This document shows, in pieces, positions 1,641 through 37,337 of a DNA stretch of 64,000 nucleotides. This stretch comes from Minisyncoccota bacterium (GTDB lineage Bacteria > Patescibacteriota > Minisyncoccia > Phycocordibacterales > XYD1-FULL-46-19), in contig JBAZMZ010000001.1 of NCBI GenBank assembly GCA_041649495.1, positions 623 through 64,622 of the forward strand. The letters run 5' to 3'. How positions within the stretch are numbered: the first letter of the stretch is position 1; each line of letters opens with the position of its first letter. The translations under genes and the position numbers were made by a program. The notes beneath the pieces are model-generated. The model was not told the origin of the DNA. It worked only from the letters and a program-made list of their open reading frames with translations, and did no database searches.

Positions 1641-3004
1641 TGGATCTAAAAGAAATTAACCCCTCGACCTTGCTCGGGGCAAGAAAAGTTTATTTTATTG
1701 GCATTGGGGGCATTGGCATGTCAGCGGTGGCAAGGATGTTTACCTTGCGAAGCCTGGGCGGAGGGGGGCTGGTTCAAATATCTGGCTCAGATCGCTCAAA
1801 ATCGCTCGTGACTGAAGAATTAGAAAAATTGGGAATCAAAGTTTTTTACGAACAAAAAGCGGAGAATATTGCTAATGATATTGATTTGGTGATTTATACA
1901 ATTGCGATTACTGAAGATAATCCTGAATTAAGAAAGGCGAGGGAATTGGGGATAAGGTGCTTAACTTATCCCGAAATGCTCGGCGTGATTTCGGACGGCA
2001 AATACACCGTTGCGGTGGCGGGGACGCACGGCAAAACGACCACGACGGCGATGATTGCCGAGATGATGATTGAGGCGGGTTTAGACCCGACGGTGGTGGT
2101 AGGGTCGTTATTGGGGTCGGGCACGAATTTTATCGCTGGTCAGAGCCAATATCTAGTGGTTGAGGCCTGTGAGTATCGACGCTCGTTTTTGAATCTTCAT
2201 CCGACCTTGGCGGTAATAACGAATATCGATAATGATCACTTAGATTACTATAAAGACTTGGCTGATATCCAGTCGGCTTTTGCGGAATTTGCCGGTCGAT
2301 TGCCAAGCGATGGTTATTTGGTTTGTGACGTCAATGATCCACTTTTGGCATCAGCGATAGAATCAGCGAAAAAGAAAGGCGTGCAAATTATTGATTATTC
2401 ACAACTTGGAGGTTTAACCTCCAAGTTGGATTTGCAAGTGCCCGGGAAGCATAATCTCGAAAATGCTAAGGGTGCGCTGGCGGTGGGGGAGGTGTTGGGG
2501 ATTAGCCCCTCGACGATGCTCGGGGCGTTGAACAAGTTCAACGGCACCTGGCGACGGTTTGAGTTTAAGGGTAAGACAAAAGGTGGCGCCTGGGTTTATG
2601 ACGATTACGCTCATCATCCGACCGAAGTTTCGGCGACGATTCAGGCGGGGCGCGAATTTATGAAGAAGAAAGGGTTAGGGGGGAAATTAATTATTGCTTT
2701 TCAACCACATTTATATAGTCGCACTAAATTACTGAAAGAAGATTTTGCACGCGTCTTGGCGCAAGCCGACGAAATTATTTTGGCGCCAATTTACGCAGCG
2801 CGTGAGGCGATTGACCCAGAAATTAATTCGGAAATTTTGGGGAATCTCATTAAGGGCAAAAATGATAAGATTAAAGTCGTAAATAATCTTGAGGAAGTCA
2901 AAAATTATTTGATTGAAAACAACAAAAATGGCGATTTGATTATTACTATGGGGGCGGGGGATATTAGCACAATTGGCGCCCAGTTGGTTGAAGCCAAAGC
3001 CTAA
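1640..3004 (+). CDS. murC: UDP-N-acetylmuramate--L-alanine ligase (MurC)
   Basis: GIGGIGMSAVARM and the GTHGKTTTTAMIA P-loop. Its start overlaps the murD stop (ATAATGG). Confidence 0.9.
   Translation: MDLKEINPSTLLGARKVYFIGIGGIGMSAVARMFTLRSLGGGGLVQISGSDRSKSLVTEELEKLGIKVFYEQKAENIANDIDLVIYTIAITEDNPELRKARELGIRCLTYPEMLGVISDGKYTVAVAGTHGKTTTTAMIAEMMIEAGLDPTVVVGSLLGSGTNFIAGQSQYLVVEACEYRRSFLNLHPTLAVITNIDNDHLDYYKDLADIQSAFAEFAGRLPSDGYLVCDVNDPLLASAIESAKKKGVQIIDYSQLGGLTSKLDLQVPGKHNLENAKGALAVGEVLGISPSTMLGALNKFNGTWRRFEFKGKTKGGAWVYDDYAHHPTEVSATIQAGREFMKKKGLGGKLIIAFQPHLYSRTKLLKEDFARVLAQADEIILAPIYAAREAIDPEINSEILGNLIKGKNDKIKVVNNLEEVKNYLIENNKNGDLIITMGAGDISTIGAQLVEAKA
1658..1683. repeat. repeat family B (aacccctcgacNNNgctcggggcaag; encodes NPSTxLGA), copy at the murC N-terminus
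   Basis: Shared 26-nt motif, in frame. Confidence 0.7.
2504..2527. repeat. repeat family B, copy inside murC (SPSTMLGA)
   Basis: agcccctcgacgatgctcggggcg. Confidence 0.65.
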
Positions 3005-3025
3005 ATTTGCTATAATCAAACCCAT

Positions 3026-3253
3026 ATGAATATGCGACATATTGTTTGGCGTAATCGGGCGAGCGCTATTTTAGGGCTAGTGGTGATGATCGTTCCCTTC
3101 ACCGGTTTTCCGGAGGGAATGAAAGAGTCGTTAATTATTTTAGCTGGCTTTCTGATTGTTATTTTTGGTTTTTCCCGAAGCTATAATAGTTACGCTTACT
3201 CAGGCGAAGAAAAGAAGCCCGTCGCGGTTGATACTCCAACCGAGCCCCATTAA
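3026..3253 (+). CDS. small two-TM membrane protein, hypothetical
   Basis: 75-aa ORF with two hydrophobic helices; no recognisable domain. Confidence 0.35.
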   Translation: MNMRHIVWRNRASAILGLVVMIVPFTGFPEGMKESLIILAGFLIVIFGFSRSYNSYAYSGEEKKPVAVDTPTEPH

Positions 3254-3255
3254 CA

Positions 3256-4458
3256 ATGTCCCAACCAATTTCCAGACGAAACGGTTTAGCTTTATCAGCC
3301 GTTGTTTTAACGGTTTTTGTGGCGGGCCTGATTTCTTTCGCTACATTTTCTTCTCTGGGGGCGATTGCTTCGCCGGCTAGCTTCTTGATGGAAAAAAGTG
3401 AGAGAGCTTCGAGCTCTGATCCCGCTCAATTATCTCTTCCGTCAACTATTGTTTCGCATCAAGCTCCACCCAAACCTCTGCATGCGGTTTATATGTCGAG
3501 CTGGGTGGCTGGCACACCAGAGGTGAGGAAAAAATTATTAGAACGACTCGAAGGAACAAATATCAACACCATCGTGATTGATGTTAAAGATTCTTCGGGA
3601 AAAATTGTGGTGAAGTTAAACGCCCCCGCGCTGGCCAAATACGAATCGTTCGATAGCCATGTCTCGGACATTGTGGCTTTTGTCGCCGAGCTCCATCAAA
3701 AAGGTTTTTATGTGATCGGTCACATCTCCGTTTTCCAAGATAATTACCTAACGCGTCGACGATCTGATCTGGCTATTCAGCGTTTGGATACCGGTCAGAT
3801 TTGGGAAGACAAAAAGGGTTTGGCCTGGCTTGATCCGAGTTCGCGCGAAGTTTGGGACTACGCGGTGGCCGTGGCCAAGGAGGCCTACGTGGCCGGTTTT
3901 GACGAATTGAATTTTGATTATGTGCGGTTTCCGTCTGACGGCGAGATTTCTCAAATGCGTTTTCCTTATTATGACGCGCAAGAAAAAACTAAATCAGAGG
4001 TGATCGAAGAATTTTTTAGTTATCTCCACGATCAAATGCAGAGTATTGGGGCGCTCACTTCGGCCAATTTGTTTGGGCTGACGACGACTAACATTGATGA
4101 TTTAGGGATCGGTCAAATTTTAGAAAAGGCGACCCCATATTTTGATTTTATTTGCCCGATGGTTTATCCCTCGCATTATCCAGCCGGTTGGCGCGGTTAC
4201 CATAATCCAGCCAAAGCGCCCTACCAAGTGATTAAAATCTCGCTCGATTCGGCAGTCAAAAGGCTTAACGCTCAAGGTCTCCCGGCCGAAAAACTTCGCC
4301 CCTGGCTTCAAGATTTCAATTTGGGCGCGATTTATACGGCCAGTCTGATTAAGGCCGAAATCAAAGCGGTTAACGATGCCGGCCTCGACTCTTGGCTGAT
4401 GTGGGACCCTAAGAATAAATACACCATTAGTGTCTATCGCCAGACCGACGCGAATTAG
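3256..4458 (+). CDS. membrane-anchored GHL10/DUF187-like putative glycoside hydrolase (TIM barrel)
   Basis: N-terminal TM segment, then HAVYMSSW...NTIVIDVKD...LNFDYVRFP, typical of the COG1306/GHL10 family. Confidence 0.55.
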   Translation: MSQPISRRNGLALSAVVLTVFVAGLISFATFSSLGAIASPASFLMEKSERASSSDPAQLSLPSTIVSHQAPPKPLHAVYMSSWVAGTPEVRKKLLERLEGTNINTIVIDVKDSSGKIVVKLNAPALAKYESFDSHVSDIVAFVAELHQKGFYVIGHISVFQDNYLTRRRSDLAIQRLDTGQIWEDKKGLAWLDPSSREVWDYAVAVAKEAYVAGFDELNFDYVRFPSDGEISQMRFPYYDAQEKTKSEVIEEFFSYLHDQMQSIGALTSANLFGLTTTNIDDLGIGQILEKATPYFDFICPMVYPSHYPAGWRGYHNPAKAPYQVIKISLDSAVKRLNAQGLPAEKLRPWLQDFNLGAIYTASLIKAEIKAVNDAGLDSWLMWDPKNKYTISVYRQTDAN

Positions 4459-4476
4459 GTATAATAGTAAATAGCT

Positions 4477-6180
4477 ATGGCCGAGACGATAATTAATTAT
4501 TTTGCTCAGACTGATTTTCGCGGGAAGAGAATTCCGTTTGGGATTAAGGGTGATGATCGAGCGCGCCATGTTTATGTGATTGGTAAGACGGGCATGGGCA
4601 AGTCTTGTTTGTTGGAGAATATGGCGGTGCAGGATATCCAAAATGGTGAGGGGATGGCCTTCATCGATCCACACGGCAAATCGGCTGAATTATTACTTGA
4701 TTTTGTGCCACCCGAACGACTCAAAGATGTTATATATTTCGCACCCTTTGATCTTGAGCACCCAATTTCTTTTAATGTGATGGAAGATGTGGGTCCGGAC
4801 CAGCGTCACTTGGTGGCGAATGGTTTAATGTCCTCGTTTAAGAAAATTTGGCCAGATGTTTGGTCGAGCCGAATGGAGTACATTTTAAATAATTGTTTAC
4901 TGGCACTTTTAGAATATCCTGACTCGACTCTTTTGGGGGTGAATCGTTTGTTGTCAGACAAAGACTATCGCAAACAAGTGGTTGATAATATTACCGACCC
5001 GTCGGTGCGATCGTTTTGGCTTGATGAATTTGCCAAGTATAACGAACGCTATATGCAGGAGGCGGGCGACGCGATTAAGAACAAGATCGGGCAATTTACG
5101 GCTAACCCCTTGATTCGTAATATTATCGGTCAAACCAAGTCCTCATTTGATTTGCGCGAGGCGATGGACAGCAAAAAGATTTTGATTGTTAACCTGTCAA
5201 AAGGGCAATTGGGTGAGCAAAACGCCAATCTCTTGGGCGGTATTTTAATTACCAAGATTTATTTGGCGGCGATGTCGCGAGCGGGCGTGGGGGCGGGGAT
5301 TTCGAAATTGCCCTACTTTTATGTTTTTATCGATGAGTTTCAATCTTTTGTCAACGATTCGTTTGCTGATATTTTGTCCGAGGCGCGCAAATATAAATTA
5401 AGTTTGACGATTGCTCATCAATATATTGAACAGATGCCAGAGGAGGTGCGGAACGCGGTTTTTGGCAACATTGGCACGACCATTGCTTTTCGGGTCGGCC
5501 CATTTGATGCCGAAGTGTTGGAGAAAATCTTTTTACCGACCTTTACGCAAGAAGACCTCGTCAATTTGGGTTTTGCTCAAATTTATTTAACGCTGATGAT
5601 TAACGGGGTTGGCTCGCCACCTTTTTCGGCCGTGACCTTGCCCCCAATTGTGTCGACGACCGCGTCGATTAAAGATCAAATCATCAAGTCTTCGCAGAAA
5701 AATTATGCTAGTCCGCGGGAATTGGTGGAGACAAAAATTACAACTTGGTTTGAACCGGTGGTTAAATTTACCGCTAAATCAGAGCCGAAAAAATCAGAAA
5801 ACTCAAAAACACCTCAAACTTTTCAATCGAGTTTGCCTCTCGCAAAGACGACTAAGGCGGTTTCAAAACCCGTCGCGACTCCGGTTACGAAATCAGCGCC
5901 CAAACCATTAGCTAAGCCGGCGCCTCCCAAAGCTTTTTCGTTGAGCATCTTGAAAAATAAAGCGCAAAGTTCTAACCCCTCGACTCCGCTCGGGGCAAGT
6001 AAAAATAAAGACGAGCTCAAAGCCTTTTTGGGCGAAATTATGGCCAACAAAAAACCCAAAACTGTTTCAGCTTCCTCAACTTCTAATCCGTCAGTCAGAT
6101 CAAATTCTCAACCTGACCCCAAAAAAGAAATTCCCCAAGATGTCCTCGAAGATCTATTAGCCGTTAAGCCGGGAGAGTAA
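4477..6180 (+). CDS. HerA/DUF87-like (T4SS coupling-protein-like) P-loop NTPase with a Pro/Lys/Ser-rich low-complexity C-terminal tail
   Basis: Walker A HVYVIGKTGMGKS, FIDPHGK and Walker B FYVFIDEFQ. The last ~170 aa are low complexity. Confidence 0.6.
   Translation: MAETIINYFAQTDFRGKRIPFGIKGDDRARHVYVIGKTGMGKSCLLENMAVQDIQNGEGMAFIDPHGKSAELLLDFVPPERLKDVIYFAPFDLEHPISFNVMEDVGPDQRHLVANGLMSSFKKIWPDVWSSRMEYILNNCLLALLEYPDSTLLGVNRLLSDKDYRKQVVDNITDPSVRSFWLDEFAKYNERYMQEAGDAIKNKIGQFTANPLIRNIIGQTKSSFDLREAMDSKKILIVNLSKGQLGEQNANLLGGILITKIYLAAMSRAGVGAGISKLPYFYVFIDEFQSFVNDSFADILSEARKYKLSLTIAHQYIEQMPEEVRNAVFGNIGTTIAFRVGPFDAEVLEKIFLPTFTQEDLVNLGFAQIYLTLMINGVGSPPFSAVTLPPIVSTTASIKDQIIKSSQKNYASPRELVETKITTWFEPVVKFTAKSEPKKSENSKTPQTFQSSLPLAKTTKAVSKPVATPVTKSAPKPLAKPAPPKAFSLSILKNKAQSSNPSTPLGASKNKDELKAFLGEIMANKKPKTVSASSTSNPSVRSNSQPDPKKEIPQDVLEDLLAVKPGE
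5974..5999. repeat. repeat family B, copy in the HerA-like ATPase tail (NPSTPLGA)
   Basis: aacccctcgactccgctcggggcaag. Confidence 0.7.
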
Positions 6181-6960
6181 TTTAGCTAACTCTAGGCGGA
6201 CAAAGCGACGAATTAAAGCGTAAGAAAAACCCGGATAAAACTCTCGGTATTTTTTGACTAGGTTTAAATTTTCCATCATTAATCTAAGTCGATCGGTGTT
6301 TGAAATATTCGAACCGTGCTGACGATAATTGAGATCGTAAGAGGGAAGATTATGGAGTTTGCCTTTTTGACCCAATTTGAGCCATAAATCATAGTCCTCA
6401 ATGCCGTTTAGGTTCGGATGATAACCATTTACAGACCGGGCAATATCTCGTCGATAAAGGATGCTCGAGTGGGCGAAAGGATTTTTTGCTAAAATTTGTA
6501 CCCTAATTTGCCCGTCTTGTTCTGGGTTGAGATAGCGTTTTCGTTCTTGATTATTCTGGTCGATAACAATTACTCCTGTACCAACGGCGACATAATTGGG
6601 GTGATCGTCGAGAAAATCAATTTGTTTTTTTAGTTTATCTGGGCTGTTCCAAATATCATCACTATCCAAAATAGCGACATATTTGCCTCGAGACTCTTGA
6701 AGGGCACGATTTCGCGAGGCACAAATGCCTAAATTTCTTTCATTTTTGAAATAACGAATTCTTGCATCAGTAAGATATTTTTTAACAATTTCTTCTGTTT
6801 GGTCGGTTGAGCCATCGTCGACAATAATTATTTCCCAATGGGTAAAGCTTTGGGCTAAGACGCTTTCAATTGTTTGAGCAATAAAATTGGCTCGATTATA
6901 AGTAATAATATTAACACTGACTTTTATTTGGGGCTCTAATTTCGTGGTAATTTGGTCCAT
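6157..6960 (-). CDS. family 2 glycosyltransferase
   Basis: VSVNIITYNRANF...IIIVDDGSTD...DSDD motifs. Confidence 0.8.
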   Translation of the reverse strand: MDQITTKLEPQIKVSVNIITYNRANFIAQTIESVLAQSFTHWEIIIVDDGSTDQTEEIVKKYLTDARIRYFKNERNLGICASRNRALQESRGKYVAILDSDDIWNSPDKLKKQIDFLDDHPNYVAVGTGVIVIDQNNQERKRYLNPEQDGQIRVQILAKNPFAHSSILYRRDIARSVNGYHPNLNGIEDYDLWLKLGQKGKLHNLPSYDLNYRQHGSNISNTDRLRLMMENLNLVKKYREFYPGFSYALIRRFVRLELAKLLSRLNG

Positions 6961-7826
6961 GTTGGGGGGATAATATCATCTATTTTGATACTACCATTAT
7001 TAAACCAGATGTCTGGCGCAATAACAATCTTGTTGGGATTTTCGTTGAGCCAAGCGCCCCACCAAGAGAAACTTGAATTAGCGATAATATTATGTTTACA
7101 CTTACTCATCAAAACTAGTTCCTGGTAATCAGTCAGTTCTTTCTCTTGTTTATTTTCCGAAACATAAGTTACTAGATGGCTATTAAATTTCATATTAGCC
7201 TTAACCCAATCAACATCATCACTAAATACAAAGAAAGCTGGATTCTCAATCTTTGTTTCAATTAACTCAATGGCTTTTTTGTAATAATTTGCCGAACAGA
7301 TTCCTAACCCTTTTAAATTAGTTGTCAAAAGGTAGTCGGTCCTTCGGACGGCAAGCGAGACAGAGTTGGTAGTTGTTATCTGATTCAATAGTTCAGGATT
7401 TGTTTGGTCAAGAGGGGTCTTGAGAGTAAAATCTTTTTGGATGACTTCTTTGATATCAGAAAAGTACTTGAAACTTTGCCAATAGCCGTCTAAATAGATA
7501 TCTTTACCCTGGGCCATCTCTTTTTTTATTCTGCTAATTACCCGAGGTTCCCAGCCGGTGTGGTGAACTCGTAGGATTTTAAATTTGAAACCGCGCCAGG
7601 CTTTGGATGCCAAACCAAGAGAGTATTTATTTTTTTTAATTTCTTGGTGGTTAGCAAAGTTCTCTTCGATAGCAAAAACTTTTAATCCGTAAGCGCGAAA
7701 ATGCTCTCGATCGTAGCCAGTTCGATCTAATTTTAGCCCCGTCTTTTGGGTGACAGCTAATTCTCGTCCCAAAGCATATTGAAACATTTGATTGCCGAGC
7801 CCGCCTTTTAAATTGACGGTAATCAT
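6936..7826 (-). CDS. GT11 alpha-1,2-fucosyltransferase-like glycosyltransferase
   Basis: N-terminal GGLGNQMFQYA signature of the GT11 fucosyltransferases. Confidence 0.75.
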   Translation of the reverse strand: MITVNLKGGLGNQMFQYALGRELAVTQKTGLKLDRTGYDREHFRAYGLKVFAIEENFANHQEIKKNKYSLGLASKAWRGFKFKILRVHHTGWEPRVISRIKKEMAQGKDIYLDGYWQSFKYFSDIKEVIQKDFTLKTPLDQTNPELLNQITTTNSVSLAVRRTDYLLTTNLKGLGICSANYYKKAIELIETKIENPAFFVFSDDVDWVKANMKFNSHLVTYVSENKQEKELTDYQELVLMSKCKHNIIANSSFSWWGAWLNENPNKIVIAPDIWFNNGSIKIDDIIPPTWTKLPRN

Positions 7827-8584
7827 TTTTCCGTCGATATTTTAAAGCTGATAATAATCTCCTCATTTTTATTAAGTACTTTTTTCCAATTTGGTTTTAA
7901 ATCTTGGTGAAAAAAATAATCTCCATTACCCATTATCCTCTGTATTTTAAAGCCGGTCTGCTTGGTAATTAATTCAATTTGCCAATAGGGCAGGGGATTA
8001 ATATGATATTCAAAACAGTCGGGGGTGAACCAGGGAAAATATCCTGTTAACCAAAATTTTAAACGACTTCTCGTTGATAAAATATTTGGCGTACTAATAA
8101 TAAAAAGCCCGTCTGGTTTGAGCATTCTTCTTGCTTGTCGGAAAAATTCCCAGGGATTTTCTAGGTGCTCGATGATTTCTTGGCCGACAATTATATCGAA
8201 GGATTGCTCGAGAAAAGGGTAAGGAAAATGATTCAAATCCCAGATTGAATTTTTTTTGTCAACTTTGGTTGACGCAATATCTACATTAGAGACGTTATAA
8301 CCCAAAAGTTCAAAAATCGTCGAGACCTGGCCAGTTCCGCCCCCTAGATTAAGAAGTTTCTTTTTTTGGTTGTTTATGCTCAACTCTCTCGTGATTGTCT
8401 CTATGACACCGGGTGAGGCATGACAATAAAGGGAATCAACTAAATATCTGCGCCAACCATAGAAGAAACTTCTCTCTTCGTGTCGAAATTGTTTTTTTAA
8501 ATTGACAACTAGATCATCGGTCGGTGCTTCAATGTTTAAAAGGCCTGTTCTCTTAAGCCAATTTTTAATAAGATTATTTTTCAT
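7823..8584 (-). CDS. class I SAM-dependent methyltransferase
   Basis: LLNLGGGTGQ glycine-rich SAM motif followed by an acidic residue and a DIIV motif. Confidence 0.6.
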   Translation of the reverse strand: MKNNLIKNWLKRTGLLNIEAPTDDLVVNLKKQFRHEERSFFYGWRRYLVDSLYCHASPGVIETITRELSINNQKKKLLNLGGGTGQVSTIFELLGYNVSNVDIASTKVDKKNSIWDLNHFPYPFLEQSFDIIVGQEIIEHLENPWEFFRQARRMLKPDGLFIISTPNILSTRSRLKFWLTGYFPWFTPDCFEYHINPLPYWQIELITKQTGFKIQRIMGNGDYFFHQDLKPNWKKVLNKNEEIIISFKISTEK

Positions 8585-9317
8585 GTTGTTTTGTTGCTAT
8601 TATAACATAGTCAAGAGTTAGCCAACGTTTATTGGTTAGCCAGTCAAGGAATAGTGAAATAATTTGAATTGGCCCCAAAATAAAAATAGACAGGGTGATT
8701 TTTAGGATGGTGTTTCTAAAAGCTAAGCTTTCAAAGACAAAGGCGGAAAATATCTGTCCTAAAACACCAAAGATTCCAGTTGTTTGAGTCAAGCTGGAGA
8801 TTTCGAGACCGTTTTGAGTTAGTAATTGTTCTAACCCATATCGAGTAAAACGGTAAAAATCATAAGGAATCTCATGTTCGTTCCAAACAAAGGGTGTCGT
8901 GATAAAAACTTGCCCATCTGTTTTTAGGGTCCGAGCCATTTCGTTTAGTAATTTTGCTGGTTCGGGGGTGTGTTCTAGAACTTGAGTACACAGAATTACT
9001 TCAAATTGATTGTCTGGGAAGGGGATATGCACGCCGTCAAAAAATTTATCAACCGTTTTCTCTTGATCGGTATGTCCACCCCCTTCAATATCTATTCCTT
9101 GGTAAGAAGAAGATAGAAAAAGGTTCTTATACGGCTTATTGCCACAGCCGACATCTAATATTTTAGAATTATGGGGGACTACTCTAGAGAATTTTCTGAT
9201 CTGGCAATAAAGGGCTCTTCGGCTAATAAAATACGGATTTAAAAAAATTGAGTACCAACTGGGTCGAAAAAAGATGGCCTCAATAATCTGCTTCTTGTTT
9301 TTTCTAAGATCGATCAT
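8574..9317 (-). CDS. class I SAM-dependent methyltransferase with a C-terminal TM segment
   Basis: ILDVGCGNKPY motif I and FEVILCTQVLEH motif. Confidence 0.7.
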   Translation of the reverse strand: MIDLRKNKKQIIEAIFFRPSWYSIFLNPYFISRRALYCQIRKFSRVVPHNSKILDVGCGNKPYKNLFLSSSYQGIDIEGGGHTDQEKTVDKFFDGVHIPFPDNQFEVILCTQVLEHTPEPAKLLNEMARTLKTDGQVFITTPFVWNEHEIPYDFYRFTRYGLEQLLTQNGLEISSLTQTTGIFGVLGQIFSAFVFESLAFRNTILKITLSIFILGPIQIISLFLDWLTNKRWLTLDYVIIATKQHEK

Positions 9318-10231
9318 AAGTTTTTGGTTACTATATCTAAGAAGGGGTTATTATATAATAGGTATTTTAATTTCTCCACACGGGTAAACTGACTGAAACC
9401 GTGGTTAAAATTTGGATCAATTTGAGCCACGCAAGTTATTGATTTTCTTATTGCCTCGATATAAGGTCGGTAAAAGGTTTTTCTTTTGGTGGCTGGAATA
9501 AAGTAGCCCTTAGCCTCAACAAATTTATCTTGATTGAGAAGTTTGAAAGCATGAAAATGATAAAAAATTACCTTTGGGGGTATCGAAGTTCGTATATTCC
9601 AGGGAGCTAGGCCAGCTCCAGGGTGTTGGATGACCGATAGGTTGGGGAATCTCTCGGGCCAATCGTTTAAATATAGCTGATCGCCGTAAAGACCATTTTC
9701 TAATCGATCGAAACACCAATCAATTACTTTATTAGCCCACCATTTAACAGCTTCTTGGCCGACCTTGTCATTTTTGAAATAAACAAAACCGACATTAAAA
9801 CGACCAACCTTTTGCGTAAATTCTTGTTGTTTTTTGGGAAAACGGTGCTCAATAATCCCAATTGAATTATTGCCAATTTCGACAAAGATTGGCTCTGGAT
9901 TATCAAAGAAATAGAGATCAGCGTCGAGGTAAGTAATACTTTCAACTTCTTCTTTTTTCAGCATAAAATGGCATAAATTAGCTGTGCAAGTCCACGCATA
10001 TTCGGCTGGGTTGCGAGAGGGTCTGACTCTTAATAGTCGTTCGTCTTCAAACTCAGACATCTTTATCAGCTTTATTTTTGGGAGATCCATCTTGGAAAGC
10101 AAGTCATATGTTTCTTCCTCTAAACAGAGAATCCAGAGAGTAAAATTAGGACAATGCTGCTTAAGTGAAAAATACAAAGCTAGGCCTCGATAAAGATAAT
10201 TCTTGTCAAATAGAGTGCAAAAATTACACAT
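9314..10231 (-). CDS. putative nucleotide-diphospho-sugar transferase (GT8-like, DxD)
   Basis: YLDADLYFF DxD-like motif in a glycan-cluster context. Confidence 0.4.
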   Translation of the reverse strand: MCNFCTLFDKNYLYRGLALYFSLKQHCPNFTLWILCLEEETYDLLSKMDLPKIKLIKMSEFEDERLLRVRPSRNPAEYAWTCTANLCHFMLKKEEVESITYLDADLYFFDNPEPIFVEIGNNSIGIIEHRFPKKQQEFTQKVGRFNVGFVYFKNDKVGQEAVKWWANKVIDWCFDRLENGLYGDQLYLNDWPERFPNLSVIQHPGAGLAPWNIRTSIPPKVIFYHFHAFKLLNQDKFVEAKGYFIPATKRKTFYRPYIEAIRKSITCVAQIDPNFNHGFSQFTRVEKLKYLLYNNPFLDIVTKNL

Positions 10232-11033
10232 GTTTTTTTAGTTTAAACAGGTAGCCCTTAAATTCTCCCCGAAAATTATGGCGCGCAATCTTTCTTTCTG
10301 GAGTTTCAAAATCTATTATCAACTCATATCGGGGGGCCAAAAAGTCTAGTAATTTTTGTTCACTGAAAAACCAACATGGGTAGCTGGCAGAGTAAATTTG
10401 TGGCGGGACTTTTTGGAGAGTAATAAAATCCTTGTTCCGTTTAGTTACACTTGTTCGGTCAAAGATTATAAATTCTAAATTTTTTGACAAAACTTCAGTC
10501 AAAATATCATACGGTTTTTCTATATACTGCAAAGAGCTGGAAAAAACTATTGTTGTTGGGTTAGTTTTTTTGATGCAATCTGAAATATTTTTGTAGAAAT
10601 TAAGTTGTTTATTAGAAAAATTTTCCTGCCCACATTTAACAAAGTTCGGTTGTTCAACAACGTTCCAGTGGATAGACAACAAATGTTTTATAAAAGGAAG
10701 GTGTTGGAAATAAATGCTCCCAAGGGAACCACCAAAATCAATCAGATTTAATCTCTGGCTATTTTGCCCGGCTACAAAGAGGAGGTTTGCTAGTAATGGC
10801 CACCGGGGTTCTTTTTTGTAAAACAAAACGGAATCTCGTTCATAAGTTGCCTCACCGGTCGTGACCTTAAGTAGGGCATTTTTAACTCTAGACAATATCA
10901 ATTTGTCGTTATAGCCGGTACTTTTTAATGCCACTTCAGACCAGTTTTGGTAAGGTCCAAACCAGCCATATCTTTGGCTGAGAATAAACCCCCTGATCTT
11001 TTTTGGGGTAACTTTTTTAAGAAAATTTTTCAT
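10224..11033 (-). CDS. TIGR04325-like methyltransferase of polysaccharide clusters
   Basis: YGWFGPYQNWSEV...IDFGGSLGS resembles the LIC12133/TIGR04325 family. Confidence 0.5.
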   Translation of the reverse strand: MKNFLKKVTPKKIRGFILSQRYGWFGPYQNWSEVALKSTGYNDKLILSRVKNALLKVTTGEATYERDSVLFYKKEPRWPLLANLLFVAGQNSQRLNLIDFGGSLGSIYFQHLPFIKHLLSIHWNVVEQPNFVKCGQENFSNKQLNFYKNISDCIKKTNPTTIVFSSSLQYIEKPYDILTEVLSKNLEFIIFDRTSVTKRNKDFITLQKVPPQIYSASYPCWFFSEQKLLDFLAPRYELIIDFETPERKIARHNFRGEFKGYLFKLKKHV

Positions 11034-11770
11034 ATTATTTTTGCAGCACTGTCAGTTGTTCGATGGCCTTTGGCCCTTTCGAAGTAAGAATTGAATATCT
11101 TAAGGGCATCTTTGGGGGAAATTAAGTTATTCCTAACGCAATACCAATTTAAATAATTTTTCTCATAGACATTTGACCTAAAGGTTGCCCTAGCTTTTTT
11201 CACATTAAGAGCTCCAAGGGCGCTGAGGCGATGATTCCCATCAATAACCAAATATCTTACCTGGTTGTCTGTTTTGATGAGGCGGACTAACTCTATATAG
11301 TTATTATTTTTTTGGGGCTCATAACCGTTTTTTTTGATCAAATAATAGGCTCTTTCTAGCCAAACGAATTCTTCTTCGAGCCTAAAATTCAAGACACCTT
11401 TTGCTGAAAAGTGGGTCATAATGTCTGGGCAGTCGTTAGGGTCATCGAGCCAACAGCGGTCTTTTTCCATAAAAACACTTTTATTGTATTTAATCCATGG
11501 ATAAATCCAGAGGGGGACGTAATTTTCCAAAGTTATCCCTAGTGCTTGCCCTAGGTTTTTGGGTCTGTAATATTTTATAAAATCTATGAATTTTTCTTGT
11601 CGCTTGTCTTTTTCTATACCGTCATGCAGCTCGAGCGTATAGGTTTGATATGGATTATAATCATTGCCCCCATAACGGAAGCCTCCATAATGAACACACT
11701 CGTTTATCGATACTTCAACAGCAAAAGGAGGAATTATTTTTTTTAGGATCGATTTTATGAATTGTGGCAT
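11030..11770 (-). CDS. hypothetical protein with a ParB/sulfiredoxin-like DGxHR motif
   Basis: YLVIDGNHRLSALGAL. Confidence 0.3.
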   Translation of the reverse strand: MPQFIKSILKKIIPPFAVEVSINECVHYGGFRYGGNDYNPYQTYTLELHDGIEKDKRQEKFIDFIKYYRPKNLGQALGITLENYVPLWIYPWIKYNKSVFMEKDRCWLDDPNDCPDIMTHFSAKGVLNFRLEEEFVWLERAYYLIKKNGYEPQKNNNYIELVRLIKTDNQVRYLVIDGNHRLSALGALNVKKARATFRSNVYEKNYLNWYCVRNNLISPKDALKIFNSYFERAKGHRTTDSAAKII

Positions 11771-12435
11771 ACTATGTAAATTCTCTCCCTATTTAAGGGG
11801 TCATCTTTACCTAAAACAAAATTATCTTTGATTTTTAGGTTGTGTATTTTTAATATCTCGCTTATCTCTTCTTTTTTATGAATAAAGTTTTTTATATCTC
11901 CCCAGGTTTTAATCTCATTTTTTCCTAACGCGAGATTCTTAATCTTACGTATTTTTCTTATAAGTCGGGAAGCAAGGGGGAGTTTTTTTTCTTGTCTCGG
12001 TTCAAATGTTTGAATAATTAATTCTTTTCGAAAAATACGACCAAATTCAGAAATCATCTTGTTGAGATCTTTTGAATTTAATAGATGAACTAATCTCCAG
12101 CAGATGACATAATCGATTGAATTGCCAGGAAAAGGCAGGGACGTGACATTGCCCAAGAATAGCTTTATTTTTTCATTATTTTTAAATTTATCTCTTACTT
12201 TTGCTAACATATCCGCAGAGATATCTGCTCCCATGACCGTCATATTTTTTTCCAGGAAGAAATCTACAAACCGACCAGTGCCAATGGGGGCATCAAGAAT
12301 GGTCGTCCCCATATCTAACCGAGAGAAGTAATCTCTTACAAAATCTTGCTCCCTTTCCCAAATCGGTTCGACAACACGGTCCCTCTCGTAATTATCGGCG
12401 ATATCCCCATAATAAGCTTTATTAGCGTTTATCAT
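11755..12435 (-). CDS. class I SAM-dependent methyltransferase
   Basis: ILDAPIGTGRF motif I and IDYVICWRLVHL. Confidence 0.7.
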   Translation of the reverse strand: MINANKAYYGDIADNYERDRVVEPIWEREQDFVRDYFSRLDMGTTILDAPIGTGRFVDFFLEKNMTVMGADISADMLAKVRDKFKNNEKIKLFLGNVTSLPFPGNSIDYVICWRLVHLLNSKDLNKMISEFGRIFRKELIIQTFEPRQEKKLPLASRLIRKIRKIKNLALGKNEIKTWGDIKNFIHKKEEISEILKIHNLKIKDNFVLGKDDPLNRERIYIVCHNS

Positions 12436-12436
12436 T

Positions 12437-13366: not shown

Positions 13367-13527
13367 AACTTAATTTTAATTGTAACTTAAAATCTCGCAT
13401 GTTTCAAGCTGAGTTTTGCTCTAAAAATGCTTGATTTTTTGATAGATAAACAAAATTATGCAGACTCTTTATTTGGAAGATTAAAGACATGACAATTAGA
13501 TAATGAATCAATAGTTTGCAATTATCG

Positions 13528-13576
13528 CAAAAAAATATAAGCAAAGAGCCTGGCAATGATTTCCACTGCCAGGCTC
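13528..13576 (-). terminator. rho-independent terminator downstream of the radical SAM gene
   Basis: Perfect 10-bp stem (gagcctggca/tgccaggctc) followed by a U-run on the minus strand. Confidence 0.6.
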
Positions 13577-13635
13577 GAAAAGAACGGGATGCAATTTCCT
13601 CTGCTTCTGCACAGAATGGAAGATGGCAGATCCCC

Positions 13636-15069: not shown

Positions 15070-15134
15070 GACGTTTCTCCTTCTGCTTTCAAGCAGGGTT
15101 GTGTGAATGACAAAGTTTCCTTTTAAAAAATACT

Positions 15135-16127: not shown

Positions 16128-16131
16128 CTAG

Positions 16132-17022: not shown

Positions 17023-17028
17023 AGTGCT

Positions 17029-32005: not shown

Positions 32006-32060
32006 TAAAAATAAGTTATTACTAAATTTGTTATTAGTTTTACTAATTAAAAATTTTTTT

Positions 32061-33020: not shown

Positions 33021-33061
33021 TCACTCTTTATCTCGTCGGTTAATTGTGTATAATTAACCTT

Positions 33062-34546
33062 ATGTCATATAAACCCACCATTGGGCTGGAGATTCATGTG
33101 GAGTTGAAGACGGCGACGAAGATGTTTTGTCGGTGTCAGAATAATCCAGCCCTTTCGACTTCGCTCAGGGCAGGCGAAACACGACCTAATATTAATATCT
33201 GTCCCGTTTGTACGGCCCAGCCGGGAGCATTGCCGGTTATTAATAAAGAGGCGGTGCGACAGGTTTTGCGCGTCGGCGTGGCTTTGAACGGGACGGTGGC
33301 GGACTTTACCGAATTTGATCGCAAAAATTATTTTTATCCCGATATCCCAAAGGGTTATCAGATTAGTCAATACAAATACCCGCTCATTTCTGGCGGTGAA
33401 TTAAACGGCGTTAAGATTACCAGAATTCATCTTGAAGAAGATACGGCCAAATCGACGCATAGCGACAAAGCTGATGAAAGTTATATTGATTTTAATCGCT
33501 CGAGTTTGCCCTTGATGGAGTTGGTGACCGAACCGGTGATTCATGATGGTCAGACGGCTTCGGCGTTTGCCAAAGAATTGCAGACGCTGATGCGCTATCT
33601 CGGCGCGTCAGAAGCGAATATGGAAAAAGGGCAGATGCGGATTGAGGCGAATATCTCGGTGGCTCGTTCCAACGTTCTTGGCACCAAGGTTGAGGTGAAA
33701 AATCTCAATTCTTTTAAGTCGGTGGAGAAAGCGATTGATTTCGAAATTGCGCGCCAAATCGAAGTTTTAGAAAATGGGGATAAGGTAATACAGGAGACGC
33801 GGGGTTGGGACGAAAATAAACAAATCACTTTCAGCCAACGGCTCAAGGAGTCGTCGCATGATTATCGTTATTTCCCTGATCCGGATTTACCCAAACTTTT
33901 TTTAAGCGAAATTCCCGAATTTAGTCTCGAGGCGATTAAAAAATCTTTGCCCGAATTGCCGTGGGAGCGACGCCAACATTTTACCGAGCAACTTGGTTTG
34001 AAATCAGAAGATGTTGAAGTCTTTGTGCAAAGTCATAAATTAGCCGAATTTTTCCGCGCCGTCGCCGAAAAATTGGTGCCCAAGGGGAACCCTTTGGGAG
34101 CCGTTCAAGGGTTCCCCTTGGGCCCTTTGGCCGAGGCCTACCTTCAGTCTGCCGTCAATTATCTCACGACTGATTTGCTGGGACTGGCGCCCACGCCCGA
34201 TGAATTAACTTTGCCCGAACCGAGCGATTATGCCGAGCTGATTAAAATGGTGGTCGAGAAAGAAGTTTCTTCGCGGGGGGCCAAAGACATTTTGGCGGTG
34301 ATGTTGCGCGAGGGAGGCGAGCCAAGAGTGATTGCCAGGGCGAAAGGCTTGTTCCAAGTTCATGACGAAGGCGCGATCTCGACGATTATTGATGAGGTGA
34401 TAAAGAAAAACGAAGCAGTTTTTGCCGAATTTAAGGCCGGCAAAGAAAAATCACTTCAATTCTTGATTGGCCAAGCGATGAAAGCCAGTCATGGTTCTGC
34501 CAATCCCGAATTACTCAAAAAACTGTTGCAAAATAAGGCGAAATAG
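33062..34546 (+). CDS. gatB: aspartyl/glutamyl-tRNA(Asn/Gln) amidotransferase subunit B, carrying an in-frame palindromic insertion
   Basis: YKPTIGLEIHVELKT...HLEEDTAKS; C-terminal GatB/YqeY domain. Confidence 0.9.
   Translation: MSYKPTIGLEIHVELKTATKMFCRCQNNPALSTSLRAGETRPNINICPVCTAQPGALPVINKEAVRQVLRVGVALNGTVADFTEFDRKNYFYPDIPKGYQISQYKYPLISGGELNGVKITRIHLEEDTAKSTHSDKADESYIDFNRSSLPLMELVTEPVIHDGQTASAFAKELQTLMRYLGASEANMEKGQMRIEANISVARSNVLGTKVEVKNLNSFKSVEKAIDFEIARQIEVLENGDKVIQETRGWDENKQITFSQRLKESSHDYRYFPDPDLPKLFLSEIPEFSLEAIKKSLPELPWERRQHFTEQLGLKSEDVEVFVQSHKLAEFFRAVAEKLVPKGNPLGAVQGFPLGPLAEAYLQSAVNYLTTDLLGLAPTPDELTLPEPSDYAELIKMVVEKEVSSRGAKDILAVMLREGGEPRVIARAKGLFQVHDEGAISTIIDEVIKKNEAVFAEFKAGKEKSLQFLIGQAMKASHGSANPELLKKLLQNKAK
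34078..34123. repeat. palindromic element family A, copy in gatB (encodes KGNPLGAVQGFPLG)
   Basis: gcccaaggggaac cctttgggagccgttcaagg gttccccttgggc. Confidence 0.85.
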
Positions 34547-34575
34547 GCGAAAGGCCAGATCGGCTCCGATTTTGC

Positions 34576-34603
34576 TTGACAAATAATAGCGTTATGCTAT
34601 ACT
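34576..34603 (+). promoter_or_regulatory. sigma70-like promoter (TTGACA, 16-nt spacer, TATACT)
   Basis: Near-consensus hexamers directly upstream of the GC-rich RNA island. Confidence 0.6.
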
Positions 34604-34609
34604 GGAAGA

Positions 34610-34968
34610 GTATATGTTCCTTGTGTTCTTAGGAGAGTGGCTAGCTCGATCGAGTGTCGACGAGTTAGCCCAGACGACAATGGAGGAAAGTCCCATGCGC
34701 ATTCGTGGTTCCACGTTCCAACTCCCCTCGCCCCCCAATATGACGATTAAGGATGACGCGTTCGTCGCCGGCATCGCGGCCGCCGCGCGAGCCTAGCCTC
34801 GCCAGGAGGCAGGCCCCGCACGAAAGGAGTTCGTTATGAAGATTTTGGGTAGACCGCCGTAACGGCGGCCACAGAGTCGCTCCGTCTAAGGTTCTCGAGT
34901 CTCGCACAGGCATTGCGAACGCCATCGGCGTCGTCGCGTCGGCCCTGCGAGACTCGGGGCCTTTTTTG
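34610..34968 (+). ncRNA. rnpB: GC-rich structured RNA, candidate RNase P RNA (P4/CR-I-like GGAGGAAAGUCCCAUGC motif), ending in a U-run terminator
   Basis: Near-consensus promoter upstream and a GC-rich stem plus U-run terminator at the end; GC far above the flanks. GAGGAAAGUCC-AUGC matches CR-I of bacterial RNase P RNA, and AUUUUGGGUAG recalls CCAAAUUUUGGUAGG of type B. I could not find the complementary P4 3' strand by eye. The only ORF (60 aa) spans the -10 region, has no Shine-Dalgarno sequence and reads like translated structured RNA. Confidence 0.45.
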
Positions 34969-35080
34969 TTTCAGCTATTTTTTTGCTAAAATCGAGATAA
35001 ACCCCATTAGAAATTTCACAATTTTTTTAATGTGCTAGAATAGGGTGTTGAGGGATTATTAAAATAAATTTATAAAAATT

Positions 35081-36136
35081 ATGGCCAGTCAAATTTCTAA
35101 CGGGGCGAGAAAAGTAAAAGTGGGGATTAATGGTCTGGGGCGAATTGGTCGGGCGTTTCTTAAATTGGCGATTAAAAATCCGGACCTTCAAATTGTTGGC
35201 GTTAATGATTTGGGCGATTTGGCCAACATCGCTTATCTTTTGAAATACGATAGCGCCTATGGCCAATTTGCGGGGACAATCGAAACGAAAAATGATGGAG
35301 CGGGTCAAGCGTTAATTGTTAATGGTCAAACCATCAAATTTTTACAAGAAAAAGATCCCGCTCAATTACCGTGGGGCGAGTTGATGGTGGATGTGGTGGT
35401 GGAGTCAACGGGGGTTTTCGAAACTTACGCGAAGGCCAAGGCTCACTTGGATGCTGGTGCCCGCAAGGTGGTAATTTCGGCACCAGTCAAAGATGAGCCA
35501 GTGGCGGGCGTGCCCGGTGGCACTTTCTTAATTAATATCAATGACGAAAAATTGAGCGACCAAGTCATGACTTCGAACGGTTCCTGCACGACTAATTGCG
35601 CCGCGCCAGTAATCAAAATTTTAGATGAAGCGCTCGGCGTTGAGAAGGCGTTACTTAATACGATCCATGGTTATACCGCGACGCAAAAATTGGTGGATGT
35701 GGCTGATGTCAAAGATTGGCGTCGGGGCCGGGCGGGGGCGGTTAACCTAATTCCCTCCACGACGGGTGCGGCGGTCGCAGTCGGGCAAGTCATCCCGCAA
35801 GTTCAGGGCAAATTTGATGGCATCGCCATTCGGGTGCCGGTCATTACCGGTTCGATGATTGATGTCACTTTTATCGCTAAGCGACCCACGTCAGTTGAGG
35901 AAGTCAATGTTATTTTAGAAAAAGCTTCCACTCTGCCCCAATGGCAAAAAACTTTTAGCGTGACGAAAGAAGCGCTCGTTTCCTCTGATATTCTTGGTAG
36001 CCCGTTTGCTTCCATTGCCGACTTATCTTATACCAAAGTCGTGGGCGGTAATCTCGTCAAAGTGATGGCTTGGTACGACAACGAAGCCGGTTATACCAAT
36101 ACGCTCGTGGAGCATGTGCTAAAATTGGGACAATAG
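35081..36136 (+). CDS. gap: glyceraldehyde-3-phosphate dehydrogenase
   Basis: VGINGLGRIGR and the SNGSCTTNCAAP active-site motif. Confidence 0.9.
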   Translation: MASQISNGARKVKVGINGLGRIGRAFLKLAIKNPDLQIVGVNDLGDLANIAYLLKYDSAYGQFAGTIETKNDGAGQALIVNGQTIKFLQEKDPAQLPWGELMVDVVVESTGVFETYAKAKAHLDAGARKVVISAPVKDEPVAGVPGGTFLININDEKLSDQVMTSNGSCTTNCAAPVIKILDEALGVEKALLNTIHGYTATQKLVDVADVKDWRRGRAGAVNLIPSTTGAAVAVGQVIPQVQGKFDGIAIRVPVITGSMIDVTFIAKRPTSVEEVNVILEKASTLPQWQKTFSVTKEALVSSDILGSPFASIADLSYTKVVGGNLVKVMAWYDNEAGYTNTLVEHVLKLGQ

Positions 36137-36151
36137 TGTTATAATTAACTC

Positions 36152-36640
36152 ATGACTATTTACTTGGGTACTGACCATGCGGGGTTTGAATTGAAGGAGC
36201 AGATTAAAGATTATCTGAAGGGAAAGGGTTTGGCTGTGCAAGACCAAGGCGCTTTTACTTTGGATCCCGAAGATGATTACACCGATTATGTGAAAATTGT
36301 GGCCAAAATGGTTCAGGGTGATTCGGAGAGTCGGGGGATAATTTTGGGTGGGTCTGGTCAAGGTGAGGCGATTTGTGCTAACCGGTTTAAGGGCGTGCGG
36401 GCGGCGCTTTATTATGGTCCCTCGGCTTCACTCGGGACAAGTGGTCCGCTCGATATTATTAAACTTTCGCGTGAACATAATGACACTAATGTTTTGTCGC
36501 TGGGTGCGCGGTTTTTGAATTTTGAGCAAGCCAAAGAAGTGATTGATTTGTGGTTGGCCACACCGTTTTCTCAAGACCCTCGTCATGTTCGGCGGATTAA
36601 AGAGATTGATGACGATGAATCAATGGGGCGAGTTATCTAA
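36152..36640 (+). CDS. rpiB: ribose-5-phosphate isomerase B
   Basis: IYLGTDHAGFELK; RpiB/LacAB family. Confidence 0.85.
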   Translation: MTIYLGTDHAGFELKEQIKDYLKGKGLAVQDQGAFTLDPEDDYTDYVKIVAKMVQGDSESRGIILGGSGQGEAICANRFKGVRAALYYGPSASLGTSGPLDIIKLSREHNDTNVLSLGARFLNFEQAKEVIDLWLATPFSQDPRHVRRIKEIDDDESMGRVI

Positions 36641-36674
36641 TCCCTAAATACTAGATACTAAATACTAAACCAAC

Positions 36675-37337
36675 ATGGAAATAATTCCCTCGATCATTGC
36701 GGATAATTTTGAAGAAGTCAAAACTCGATTGATTCGCGTCGAGGGTTTAGTGGACTGGGTCGAATTGGATATTGCCGATGGTGTTTTTGTACCGAGTTTT
36801 ACTTGGCCAATGTTGTTAGGGCAAGCCCCCGAGGATTTAAAAGAGGTTGACGGCAAAACCAAAATCAGTGCCCATTTAATGGTTGAACACCCCGAAACTT
36901 TGATTGACGACCCCTCAACTCCGTTCGGGGCAAGTTGGCAGGAGGTAGTTGATCGCCTTATTATTCATTACGAATCGACGGACGAGATTGAAAAAATAAT
37001 CGAAACCAAAGGCGCGCATATTAGTCTTGGTTTGGCGCTTGAATTGGCCACGCCAGTTGAAAAAATTTATCATTATTTAGATAGAGTAAAATTAGTTCAA
37101 TTAATGAGTATCGAACGCGTTGGTTACTCGGGTGAAAAATTTGACGAACGAGTCTTTGAAAAAATTAAAACGCTTAAAACCAATTGGCCAGATGTCAAAA
37201 TAATTATTGATGGCGGGATTGATCTGGAAATTGGCCGGCGCCTCAAAGAAGTTGGTGCCGATGGTCTCGTGATTGGCTCCCGCATTTGGCAGGCGCCCAA
37301 TATCGAAGAAACAATTAAAAGTTTCCAAAATTTGTGA
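36675..37337 (+). CDS. rpe: ribulose-phosphate 3-epimerase, carrying an in-frame repeat insertion
   Basis: IIPSIIADNF...LDIADGVFVP...IIDGGI motifs. Confidence 0.75.
   Translation: MEIIPSIIADNFEEVKTRLIRVEGLVDWVELDIADGVFVPSFTWPMLLGQAPEDLKEVDGKTKISAHLMVEHPETLIDDPSTPFGASWQEVVDRLIIHYESTDEIEKIIETKGAHISLGLALELATPVEKIYHYLDRVKLVQLMSIERVGYSGEKFDERVFEKIKTLKTNWPDVKIIIDGGIDLEIGRRLKEVGADGLVIGSRIWQAPNIEETIKSFQNL
36910..36935. repeat. repeat family B, copy in rpe (DPSTPFGA)
   Basis: gacccctcaactccgttcggggcaag. Confidence 0.65.

Follow-up and report, generated by a model that had tools for sequence, protein, structure and literature searches.

A stretch of 64,000 nt from the genome of a member of Candidatus Paceibacterota (Parcubacteria, near Vogelbacteria), an ultra-small bacterium from groundwater-type metagenomes, the stretch being referred to throughout as ‘the window’, carries a family of very short repeats dispersed among its housekeeping genes. 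The repeated unit is 24 nt long, and comparison with related genomes reveals that it inserts as a discrete block, without target duplication, into the protein-coding genes of this lineage. Each insertion adds eight codons and leaves the gene open. The unit is also a hairpin, and we think it probable that it is a selfish element that colonizes the coding sequences of a gene-dense genome, similar in kind to repetitive extragenic palindromic sequences (REPs) and Rickettsia palindromic elements (RPEs; no relation to the gene product Rpe), and that it is moved as single-stranded DNA (ssDNA) by an enzyme acting in trans. Loci from other genomes are designated below by the letter L and a number.

The family came to light in a first-pass annotation of the window, which reported four copies of an in-frame motif, at positions 1658, 2504, 5974 and 36910. 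All four are present, within 2 nt of these positions. As was claimed, they occupy one codon phase inside coding sequences (CDSs), reading xPSTx(L/F)GA, and three of the four share the 3′ end GGGGCAAG. The sequence CCCCTCRACNNNGYTCGGGGC occurs exactly at 1660, 2506, 5976 and 36911 (n = 4), and with 2 mismatches at two sites on the other strand. These six matches (≤2 mismatches) compare with 0.02 expected from shuffled sequences, and a scan of the window for the core plus its stem finds nine copies against 0.2 expected from Markov controls, so that a copy number equal to chance, raised in the annotation as grounds for discarding the family, is far exceeded. When diverged and nested copies, identified by k-mer and pattern scans, are included in the count, the family in the window comprises approximately 12 units at 10 sites (Table 1). 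All of them lie inside CDSs and none is intergenic. The host genes encode a MurD-like ligase (two sites), MurC (two sites), a TrwB/HerA-like ATPase, GatB, RpiB, Rpe, PfkB and PheS; the description of an in-frame family at unrelated positions of unrelated proteins is borne out, and the family is larger than was claimed. One additional copy, in a minus-strand RNase R gene, lies 3 kb outside the window, within the 9 kb beyond it that were also scanned. The density of copies here is ~0.2 per kb, versus ~0.013 per kb (8 exact copies in 594 kb) in other Parcubacteria.

The unit consists of a 20-nt hairpin and a 4-nt tail, usually CAAG. The hairpin has a variable 4-bp stem and a conserved 12-nt apex, TCGAC-NNN-GCTC. 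Stems of the types CCCC/GGGG, CCCT/AGGG, CCTT/AGGG, TCCC/GGGA and TGGT/ACCA occur among the copies in the window. The feet are CTTG, CTCG, CCTG or GGAG on one strand, and are without conservation on the other. Because 24 is a multiple of three, the reading frame is kept at every insertion, and the CCCC/GGGG form contains a stop codon in no orientation or frame (worked out directly from its sequence); the in-frame property therefore needs no special explanation. Each copy adds eight residues, usually xPSTxLGA, and the codons themselves are identical from copy to copy (CCC TCG ... CTC GGG GCA), in a genome that is AT-rich.

In close relatives, empty sites close precisely at Rpe, the ATPase, the MurC N-terminus, both sites in the MurD-like ligase, and RpiB, and at PheS over 48 nt. 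No target-site duplication is found at the six resolved junctions. The copy at the MurC N-terminus is an exact 24-nt insertion with respect to L204 and to most MurC orthologs (empty site ATTAA|AAAAGTT), that in the tail of the ATPase (Pfam match PF10412) is the same with respect to the L204 ortholog (TCTAA|TAAAAAT, again without target duplication), and that in RpiB with respect to L201, L202 and L203 (TATGG|TGGT). The Rpe copy is missing from ~70 orthologs, including relatives that are 87–88% identical; the empty junction, GACGA|TTGG in L201, corresponds to GACGA-[CCCCTCAACTCCGTTCGGGGCAAG]-TTGG in the window. Alignment of MurC and Rpe orthologs, the check proposed in the first-pass annotation, thus identifies lineage-specific insertions of eight codons at the MurC N-terminus and in Rpe, and likewise in the ATPase tail, and the peptide PSTxLGA is not conserved in orthologs, as a genuine protein motif would be. 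PheS is exactly 48 nt (16 amino acids) longer than in the close relatives L207 and L208 (~90% identical), and ~19 amino acids longer than PheS in the PDB; here the loop of one 24-mer is split by another, which lies between loop bases 2 and 3. Self-nesting of this kind, a new unit in the loop of an existing one, is seen in PheS and, probably, in PfkB. An alignment to PDB structures had suggested that the Rpe copy overlays a conserved AGA with a length change of at most 1 amino acid; this was ruled out by the clean 8-residue insertion seen among close orthologs.

The hairpin is revealed by covariation. In 1.5 Mb of DNA there are 88 core matches once those found by the seed pattern are excluded, and 46 of these are flanked by a stem of 4 bp or more, versus ~9 expected when flanks are re-paired at random; 18 stem types are represented. 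Paired cells make up 71.9% of the total, compared with 60.3% in shuffles and 23–47% in slid controls, and the covariation score is 0.319, compared with 0.150 in shuffles (0/500 of which reach 0.319) and 0.147 or less in slid controls. In ~65% of copies TNC makes up the loop triplet, corresponding to GNA on the opposite strand. Four-base loops also occur (TCTC, TGTC, TTTC and TGAC), and these read on the other strand as GAGA, GACA and GAAA, mostly of the GNRA kind, and in one case GTCA. With such loops, the apex of the complementary strand takes the form GA-GC-GNA (or GNRA)-G(T)C-GA, in which a GNA or GNRA loop tops two base pairs, with an extra T, above a tandem G.A/A.G internal loop. An alternative 6-bp register given by ViennaRNA, CCUCGA/UCGGGG, was set aside because the CCCT/AGGG and TGGT/ACCA variants and the slid controls favor the nested 4-bp register. 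Searches with Rfam returned only a tRNA in the window at the gathering score, and no match at E ≤ 1 in seven multi-copy loci. The hammerhead ribozyme, K-turn, T-loop, SECIS element, CRISPR repeat and rRNA or tRNA fragments, compared by eye, do not fit.

Eight of the copies in sense orientation share one codon phase, among them the minus-strand RNase R copy. The PfkB pair, also sense, is in a different phase (PFD..AQ), and three copies are antisense. Because the copies in minus-strand genes are also sense, orientation follows the gene and not the chromosome strand. We infer that the strong bias toward one orientation and one codon phase reflects purifying selection on the encoded peptide. The insertions differ in age: that at the MurC N-terminus is old and patchy, and those in Rpe, RpiB and PheS are recent. 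The MurC N-terminal copy is decayed in L205, L206 and L124 and is distributed patchily over the MurC tree. Its allele, always NPSTLLGA with the same rare loop, recurs nearly unchanged in scattered and diverged MurC lineages.

Table 1. Sites of the 24-nt unit in the window, and one look-alike (hyphens separate stem, apex and tail segments; peptides in one-letter code)
Gene product or site	Position	Strand	Sequence and remarks
MurD-like ligase	499..522	-	opposite orientation; + strand CTTG-CCCT-GAGC-GAA-GTCGA-AGGG, ACPERSRR
MurD-like ligase	830..853	+	TGGT-TCGAC-TTC-GCTC-ACCA-CAAG, GSTSLTTS
MurC, N-terminus	1660..1683	+	CCCC-TCGAC-CTT-GCTC-GGGG-CAAG, NPSTLLGA
MurC, interior	2506..2525	+	20 nt, CCCC-TCGAC-GAT-GCTC-GGGG, no CAAG tail, ISPSTMLGAL
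TrwB/HerA-like P-loop ATPase, C-terminal tail	5976..5999	+	CCCC-TCGAC-TCC-GCTC-GGGG-CAAG, NPSTPLGA
GatB	33151..33174	+	CCTT-TCGAC-TTC-GCTC-AGGG-CAGG, ALSTSLRA
RpiB	36418..36441	+	diverged; TCCC-TCGGC-TTC-ACTC-GGGA-CAAG, PSASLGTS
Rpe	36911..36934	+	CCCC-TCAAC-TCC-GTTC-GGGG-CAAG, PSTPFGAS
PfkB	40107..40154	-	probable nested pair; inner unit 40122-40145 (CGGT-TCGAC-GAT-ACTC-ACCA-CCAG) at loop of decayed outer unit
PheS	47507..47554	-	nested pair, opposite orientation; outer unit GGAG-CCCC-GAGC-GA|A-GTCGA-GGGG
PheS, inner unit	47521-47544	-	CTCG-TCCC-GAGC-TGG-GTCGA-GGGA, inserted in loop of outer unit
GyrB look-alike	50883..50902	+	CCTT-TCGAC-TTG-GCTC-AAGG, native NALSTWLKA

Individual sites add detail. 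The first copy in the MurD-like ligase adds eight residues that are missing from PDB MurD and from most orthologs, although L205 has them; it directly follows a native GTCGAGGGG encoding VEG. The second, also an 8-residue insertion, is missing from ~40 orthologs; a distant ortholog, L161, has it intact, L205 has it in decayed form, and closer orthologs are without it. The TGGT stem of this copy stands beside a native YG, and an ‘inverted target duplication’, in which the stem is copied from the flank, was considered for this reason; the junctions in Rpe and the ATPase rule it out. In GatB, the copy accounts for eight extra residues relative to the solved structure of T. maritima GatB, between FCxC and PN..CPVC. 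The inner G–C pair of the Rpe copy is compensated to A–T on both sides. The insert falls, in an AlphaFold model of Rpe (mean pLDDT, the model's confidence score, 92.9), in a coil within the block of lowest confidence, and these eight residues are thus predicted to occupy a flexible surface coil and to be tolerated in the protein. In L202 and L203 a different GC hairpin of 21 nt (CCATCGCCCCGGCGGGGCGAG, encoding HRPGGAS) occupies the exact position of the 24-mer in Rpe; this suggests that the two elements share a hot spot of insertion, or that one has replaced the other. The PfkB pair, in a variable region with a net gain of 8 amino acids over L202 and L203, is the least certain member of the family.

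The match in GyrB involves no change of length. Its residues are widely conserved, and relatives specify them with different synonymous codons: over the eight codons compared, L208 departs from the window at two synonymous sites, one of which falls inside the 20-nt match. Since relatives keep the residues with other codons, the match is probably a coincidence with native sequence and not a member of the family, and the possibility that it is a member, or a copy written by gene conversion, was dropped in view of this synonymous drift. One chance match is compatible with the 0.2 expected.

Two observations concern the neighborhood of the copies. The segment at ~1741–1765 in MurC, after ARMF, is an insertion hot spot, with LRSLGGGGL in the window, LEGKE in close orthologs, and unrelated GC-rich inserts in others (LRSFSE.., RQAQDKLPGE, DPPSQSFG..). 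And a 15-kb cluster of low GC content (36–40%) on the minus strand, at 6157–20975, which encodes glycosyltransferases, methyltransferases, a B12-radical SAM enzyme and a flippase for glycan synthesis, is without a copy of any repeat family, unlike the housekeeping genes that flank it; the cluster may be an island that is variable or of more recent acquisition.

The unit is also widespread in other genomes. A species-representative genome collection contains at least 120 loci with the exact 20-mer CCCCTCGACNNNGCTCGGGG, and the matches listed include Acidobacteriota, Myxococcota, Bacteroidota, Planctomycetota, Verrucomicrobiota, sphingomonads, Gemmatimonadota, Omnitrophota and several Patescibacteria. 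By our estimate, a few hundred chance matches to a 20-mer are allowed in high-GC genomes. Most of the listed matches are nonetheless real, because they exhibit the TNC loop bias, recurrent 3′ tails (CAAG, CAGG, TGAC and CGAA) and frequent tandem or inverted doublets, and occur also in genomes of 30–45% GC. In other loci from the candidate phyla radiation (CPR), copies are intergenic or in other reading frames, and in one of them, L022, the hairpin caps a terminator-like stem that is followed by a T-run. The 20-mer is carried by 62 viral stretches. On one viral contig of 35 kb the core is matched nine times, five times as the exact 20-mer, and the matches form tandem arrays that lie between genes and are co-oriented with them. 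Between positions 3700 and 8800 of the viral sequence IMGVR_UViG_2731639222_000001 (L247), the hairpin and its halves, in tandem arrays (CCCCTCGACTCCT)n ... (GGGGAACGC)n, stand in successive intergenic gaps, all in the orientation of the genes. In three sphingomonad-type contigs (L042, L096 and L107) the hairpin is one arm of a compound unit, CCGTTCG-[TGTC GAGCGAAGTCGA GACA]-[CCCC TCGACTACGCTC GGGG]-CGAACGG, in which two opposite copies stand inside an outer stem, so that both strands read alike. Literature searches with the sequence and its peptides returned only primers or general papers on REPs, and neither sequence nor peptides occur in any paper searched.

How might such a unit move? We suppose that it spreads as selfish DNA, in the manner of REPs and RPEs, and that the hairpin would be recognized as ssDNA, in trans, by an enzyme encoded outside the window. 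The likeliest type, proposed by analogy, would be an HUH/Y1 nuclease-ligase resembling those of IS200 elements and the REP-associated tyrosine transposases (RAYTs), which could cut and paste the unit precisely. Recognition would be by way of the conserved unpaired bases, the complementary strand presenting the tandem G.A/A.G loop, two base pairs and GNA or GNRA loop, and new copies could land in the loop of an existing one.

The closest published objects are the hairpins associated with class 3 TnpA-Y1 genes. These genes, in Acidobacteria, Planctomycetes and Proteobacteria, are flanked by ‘atypical’ REP-like hairpins, ~600 of them in Solibacter (Quentin et al. 2018, PMC6006769); an example from Solibacter usitatus is CCGAGCCGCGACTGTCAAGGAGCGGTTG (PMC6006769). 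The two kinds of hairpin have the same architecture (GCCGC-GA-CY-GTCA-RG-GA-GCGGT in class 3, and CCCC-GA-GC-GNA-G(T)C-GA-GGGG in the 24-nt unit): a GC stem, a 2×2 GA/GA internal loop, two base pairs, and a loop of 3–4 nt. Both reach high copy number, and the phyla that harbor them overlap strongly with the 20-mer matches listed. They differ in the inner pairs and loop (CY-GTCA-RG versus GC-GNA-G(T)C with the extra T) and in the 5′ CnGA foot, which the 24-nt unit lacks. The class 3 hairpins are described, moreover, as extragenic, and a search by regular expression, a weak one, turned up no class 3 gene in the vicinity of the 24-nt unit. REPs and their paired forms (REPINs) are similar in being short (20–40 nt), dispersed, imperfect palindromes that form stem-loops, as the unit does, and in being found frequently as inverted doublets, as it is in other phyla. 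The RAYT of E. coli requires a conserved 2×2 mismatch in the REP (PMC8266576). REPs are typically extragenic, whereas all copies in the window are intragenic, with intergenic ones known from other taxa and from phage, and the GT[AG]G or CGTC foot of REPs is not present in the unit. Intragenic REPs and RPEs have been documented, with GTAG or CGTC tags (PMC3733652); our motif does not appear in that paper or in its supplements.

In-frame palindromic insertion into functional open reading frames (ORFs), seen here in the pairs of empty and filled sites of seven genes, is the feature that the unit shares with RPEs. Ogata and colleagues reportedly found, in 2000, that RPEs are selfish palindromic repeats lodged in-frame in the housekeeping genes of a reduced genome, where their peptides are tolerated. 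RPE-1 is ~100–150 nt long, RPE-4 and RPE-6 are CGTC-tagged, and all belong to Rickettsiales; the element described here is 24 nt, unrelated in sequence, from Paceibacterota, and widespread outside that lineage. Insertion sequences of the IS200/IS605 type transpose by ‘peel and paste’: they produce no target duplication, excise precisely, have imperfect ssDNA hairpins that are recognized by the enzyme, and target single-stranded regions, which self-nesting in hairpin loops would fit. They differ from the unit in having two different subterminal hairpins and a target of 4–5 nt, where we see one hairpin in 24 nt and no clear target. Miniature inverted-repeat transposable elements, with the terminal inverted repeats of a parent insertion sequence, target duplications and lengths of 50–500 nt, are not a match for a unit of 24 nt that leaves no duplication at six junctions.

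A number of points weigh against the selfish-element interpretation. Beyond AT-rich junctions (AA|T, GA|T, AA|A, TA|T and GG|T), no consistent target sequence was found, and the mobility of the unit is deduced from comparison between genomes. Searches with Pfam detect no Y1/HUH, transposase, integrase or reverse transcriptase gene in the window. Nor was a Y1 or RAYT gene detected in 2.1 Mb of copy-bearing loci, or a YV[VI]xEQ or NHVH class 3 signature in such loci; both are weak tests, the former by tblastn with transposase queries and by HuH..Y regular expressions, the latter by regular expressions. The 5′ foot matches none of GTAG, CGTC or CnGA. REP–RAYT pairs co-evolve and are species-specific, whereas the 12-nt apex of the unit is one and the same in many phyla, which is easier to reconcile with a conserved host factor, or with a role in RNA, than with a dedicated transposase. 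The predicted energies of the hairpins are ordinary, at −5 to −11 kcal/mol with z-scores of +0.2 to −1.7. Because these energies are modest, the first-pass annotation saw no self-complementarity other than CCCC/GGGG; its statement that none is strong is correct for folding energy, but overlooks the short 4-bp hairpin disclosed by covariation. Finally, a single insertional origin for the four copies first reported applies to those at the MurC N-terminus, the ATPase tail and Rpe, and does not apply simply to the internal copy of MurC, which is length-neutral. The latter produces no gap relative to PDB MurC or to 60 orthologs, and replaces sequence of the type IDEEVAKQAL. Motif scores at this site are bimodal across the 60 orthologous loci (18, 16, 16 and 13, the remainder being 9 or less), so that the copy must have come from a discrete event and not from drift, and L205, L140 and L144 have a compensated CCCT/AGGG stem here. 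This copy may have arisen by insertion followed by a deletion of equal size, or by a short conversion tract.

The unit might instead be a functional RNA hairpin, present in mRNAs (and, in other bacteria, in intergenic regions or terminators), bound by a conserved RNA-binding protein or nuclease, and kept by selection. An apex that is identical across phyla while stems covary is what a protein-binding hairpin would show; tandem G.A and loops of the GNA or GNRA type belong to the classic repertoire of RNA motifs; the L022 copy has its terminator-like stem and T-run; the copies on the viral contig are all intergenic and co-oriented with genes; and orientation tracks the gene strand, including minus-strand PfkB and RNase R. 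We consider this unlikely, however, because the strand with the stable G.A/GNRA structure is usually the antisense one in CDS copies (TC is sense in 9, versus 3) and in phage arrays, and because copies decay freely in sister lineages (L205, L206, L124 and L150). The unrelated host genes and positions, the ordinary predicted energies and the lack of an Rfam match also argue against it. A DNA recognition sequence, either an uptake signal or the site of a chromosome-organizing protein, enriched by biased conversion or uptake and written wherever the protein tolerates it, would explain the length-neutral MurC copy, the near-copy in GyrB with its synonymous changes on native ALSTWLKA, and the scattered NPSTLLGA alleles with their rare loop, a distribution suggestive of dispersal through recombination. 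The uptake sequences of Neisseria (DUS) and Haemophilus (USS) are short coding-region motifs in preferred frames, ~1 per kb, lineage-specific and gained by substitution. They resemble the 24-nt unit, above all the length-neutral MurC copy, in being embedded in genes without disruption of the proteins, but they are ~10 times denser, born of substitution and confined to one lineage, whereas the unit consists mostly of indels and occurs in many phyla. Uptake bias does not produce indels of exactly 24 or 48 nt, which 10 of the 11 real sites are; copies are sparse, both here and in other Parcubacteria; scores at the MurC site are bimodal instead of graded; and one uptake signal common to many phyla is implausible. 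This reading therefore seems to us quite improbable.

Sites for recombination or for an integrase, the idea offered in the first-pass annotation, are very improbable. The sequences are short, partly symmetric and repeated, as such sites are, and one relative has a gene cluster with RVT_1 inserted between GatB and GAPDH; but Pfam reveals no integrase or recombinase in the window, no copy flanks foreign DNA, the copies lie inside essential genes that stay intact, and the empty sites establish that the 24-mer itself is the DNA that was added. Barely credible, lastly, is selection of PSTxLGA at the level of the protein for a function of the peptide, or chance similarity. The shared codon phase and similar peptides of 8 of the ~10 sense copies in the genome might be taken this way. 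Yet even the codons are the same in this AT-rich genome, the element appears elsewhere in other frames, in opposite orientation and in intergenic DNA, orthologs lack the peptide, and the chance expectation is 0.02 to 0.2.

Essential enzymes of a minimal-genome CPR bacterium (MurC, the MurD-like ligase, GatB, PheS, Rpe, RpiB and RNase R) are full of these 8-codon hairpin inserts, probably selfish ones, and this has consequences in such lineages for the calling of genes, the alignment of orthologs, the prediction of structures and any estimate of how far proteins have diverged. With a searchable motif (stem, TCGAC-NNN-GCTC, stem, CAAG) and clean pairs of empty and filled sites, the movement of REP-like hairpins is opened to direct test. 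That the apex is conserved from phylum to phylum points to an unrecognized partner protein, or to the orphan class 3 HUH enzymes. A bolder proposal, possible but in our opinion doubtful, is that of a ‘nano-element’: a mobile DNA unit of 24 nt, among the smallest known, that inserts precisely, nests, overwrites coding sequence in a length-neutral way, and has a conserved apex, with tandem G.A and GNA loop, shared from Patescibacteria to Acidobacteriota, Bacteroidota and phages. Were this true, it would imply either an ssDNA enzyme that has been widely transferred, perhaps one of the orphan HUH-Y1 proteins of class 3, or else a host activity that is universal, and in gene-dense CPR genomes the nano-element would supply essential proteins with loop insertions of eight residues.

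The 24-nt unit is not the only repeat in these genes. A second, longer, palindromic in-frame repeat, AAGGGGAACCC-TTTGGGAGCAGTTCA-AGGGTTCCCCTT, encoding KGNPLGAVQGFPL and earlier noted as family A, occurs at 620–660 in the MurD-like ligase, 34083–34118 in GatB, and 48401–48440 and 49172–49210 in PheT, and falls opposite gaps when GatB and the MurD-like ligase are aligned with their PDB homologs. A perfect palindrome of 54 nt (25-bp stem, −58 kcal/mol) at 1268–1321 adds ~14 residues (LPRRRSSGNFPMTVVGAGA) to the MurD-like CDS, and its site is occupied in L204 and L205 by different, shorter palindromes. A GC palindrome, CCGGCTCGGCC-AAGG-CCGAGCCGG, is found at 26002–26039 in the C-terminal tail of SecA (PGSAKAEPA). 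The 535-nt spacer between GatB and GAPDH, at 34546–35081, is very GC-rich and strongly structured, and has no match in Rfam; the same gap in the syntenic relative L202 contains, at 1166–8356, a set of AAA_5, reverse transcriptase (RVT_1) and VWA genes. Downstream of EF-Ts, at 46727–47158, is a conserved ORF of 143 amino acids without a Pfam match, the L208 ortholog of which has a weak match to HNH, and at 54508–54906 there is a gene for a toxin of the PemK/MazF type.

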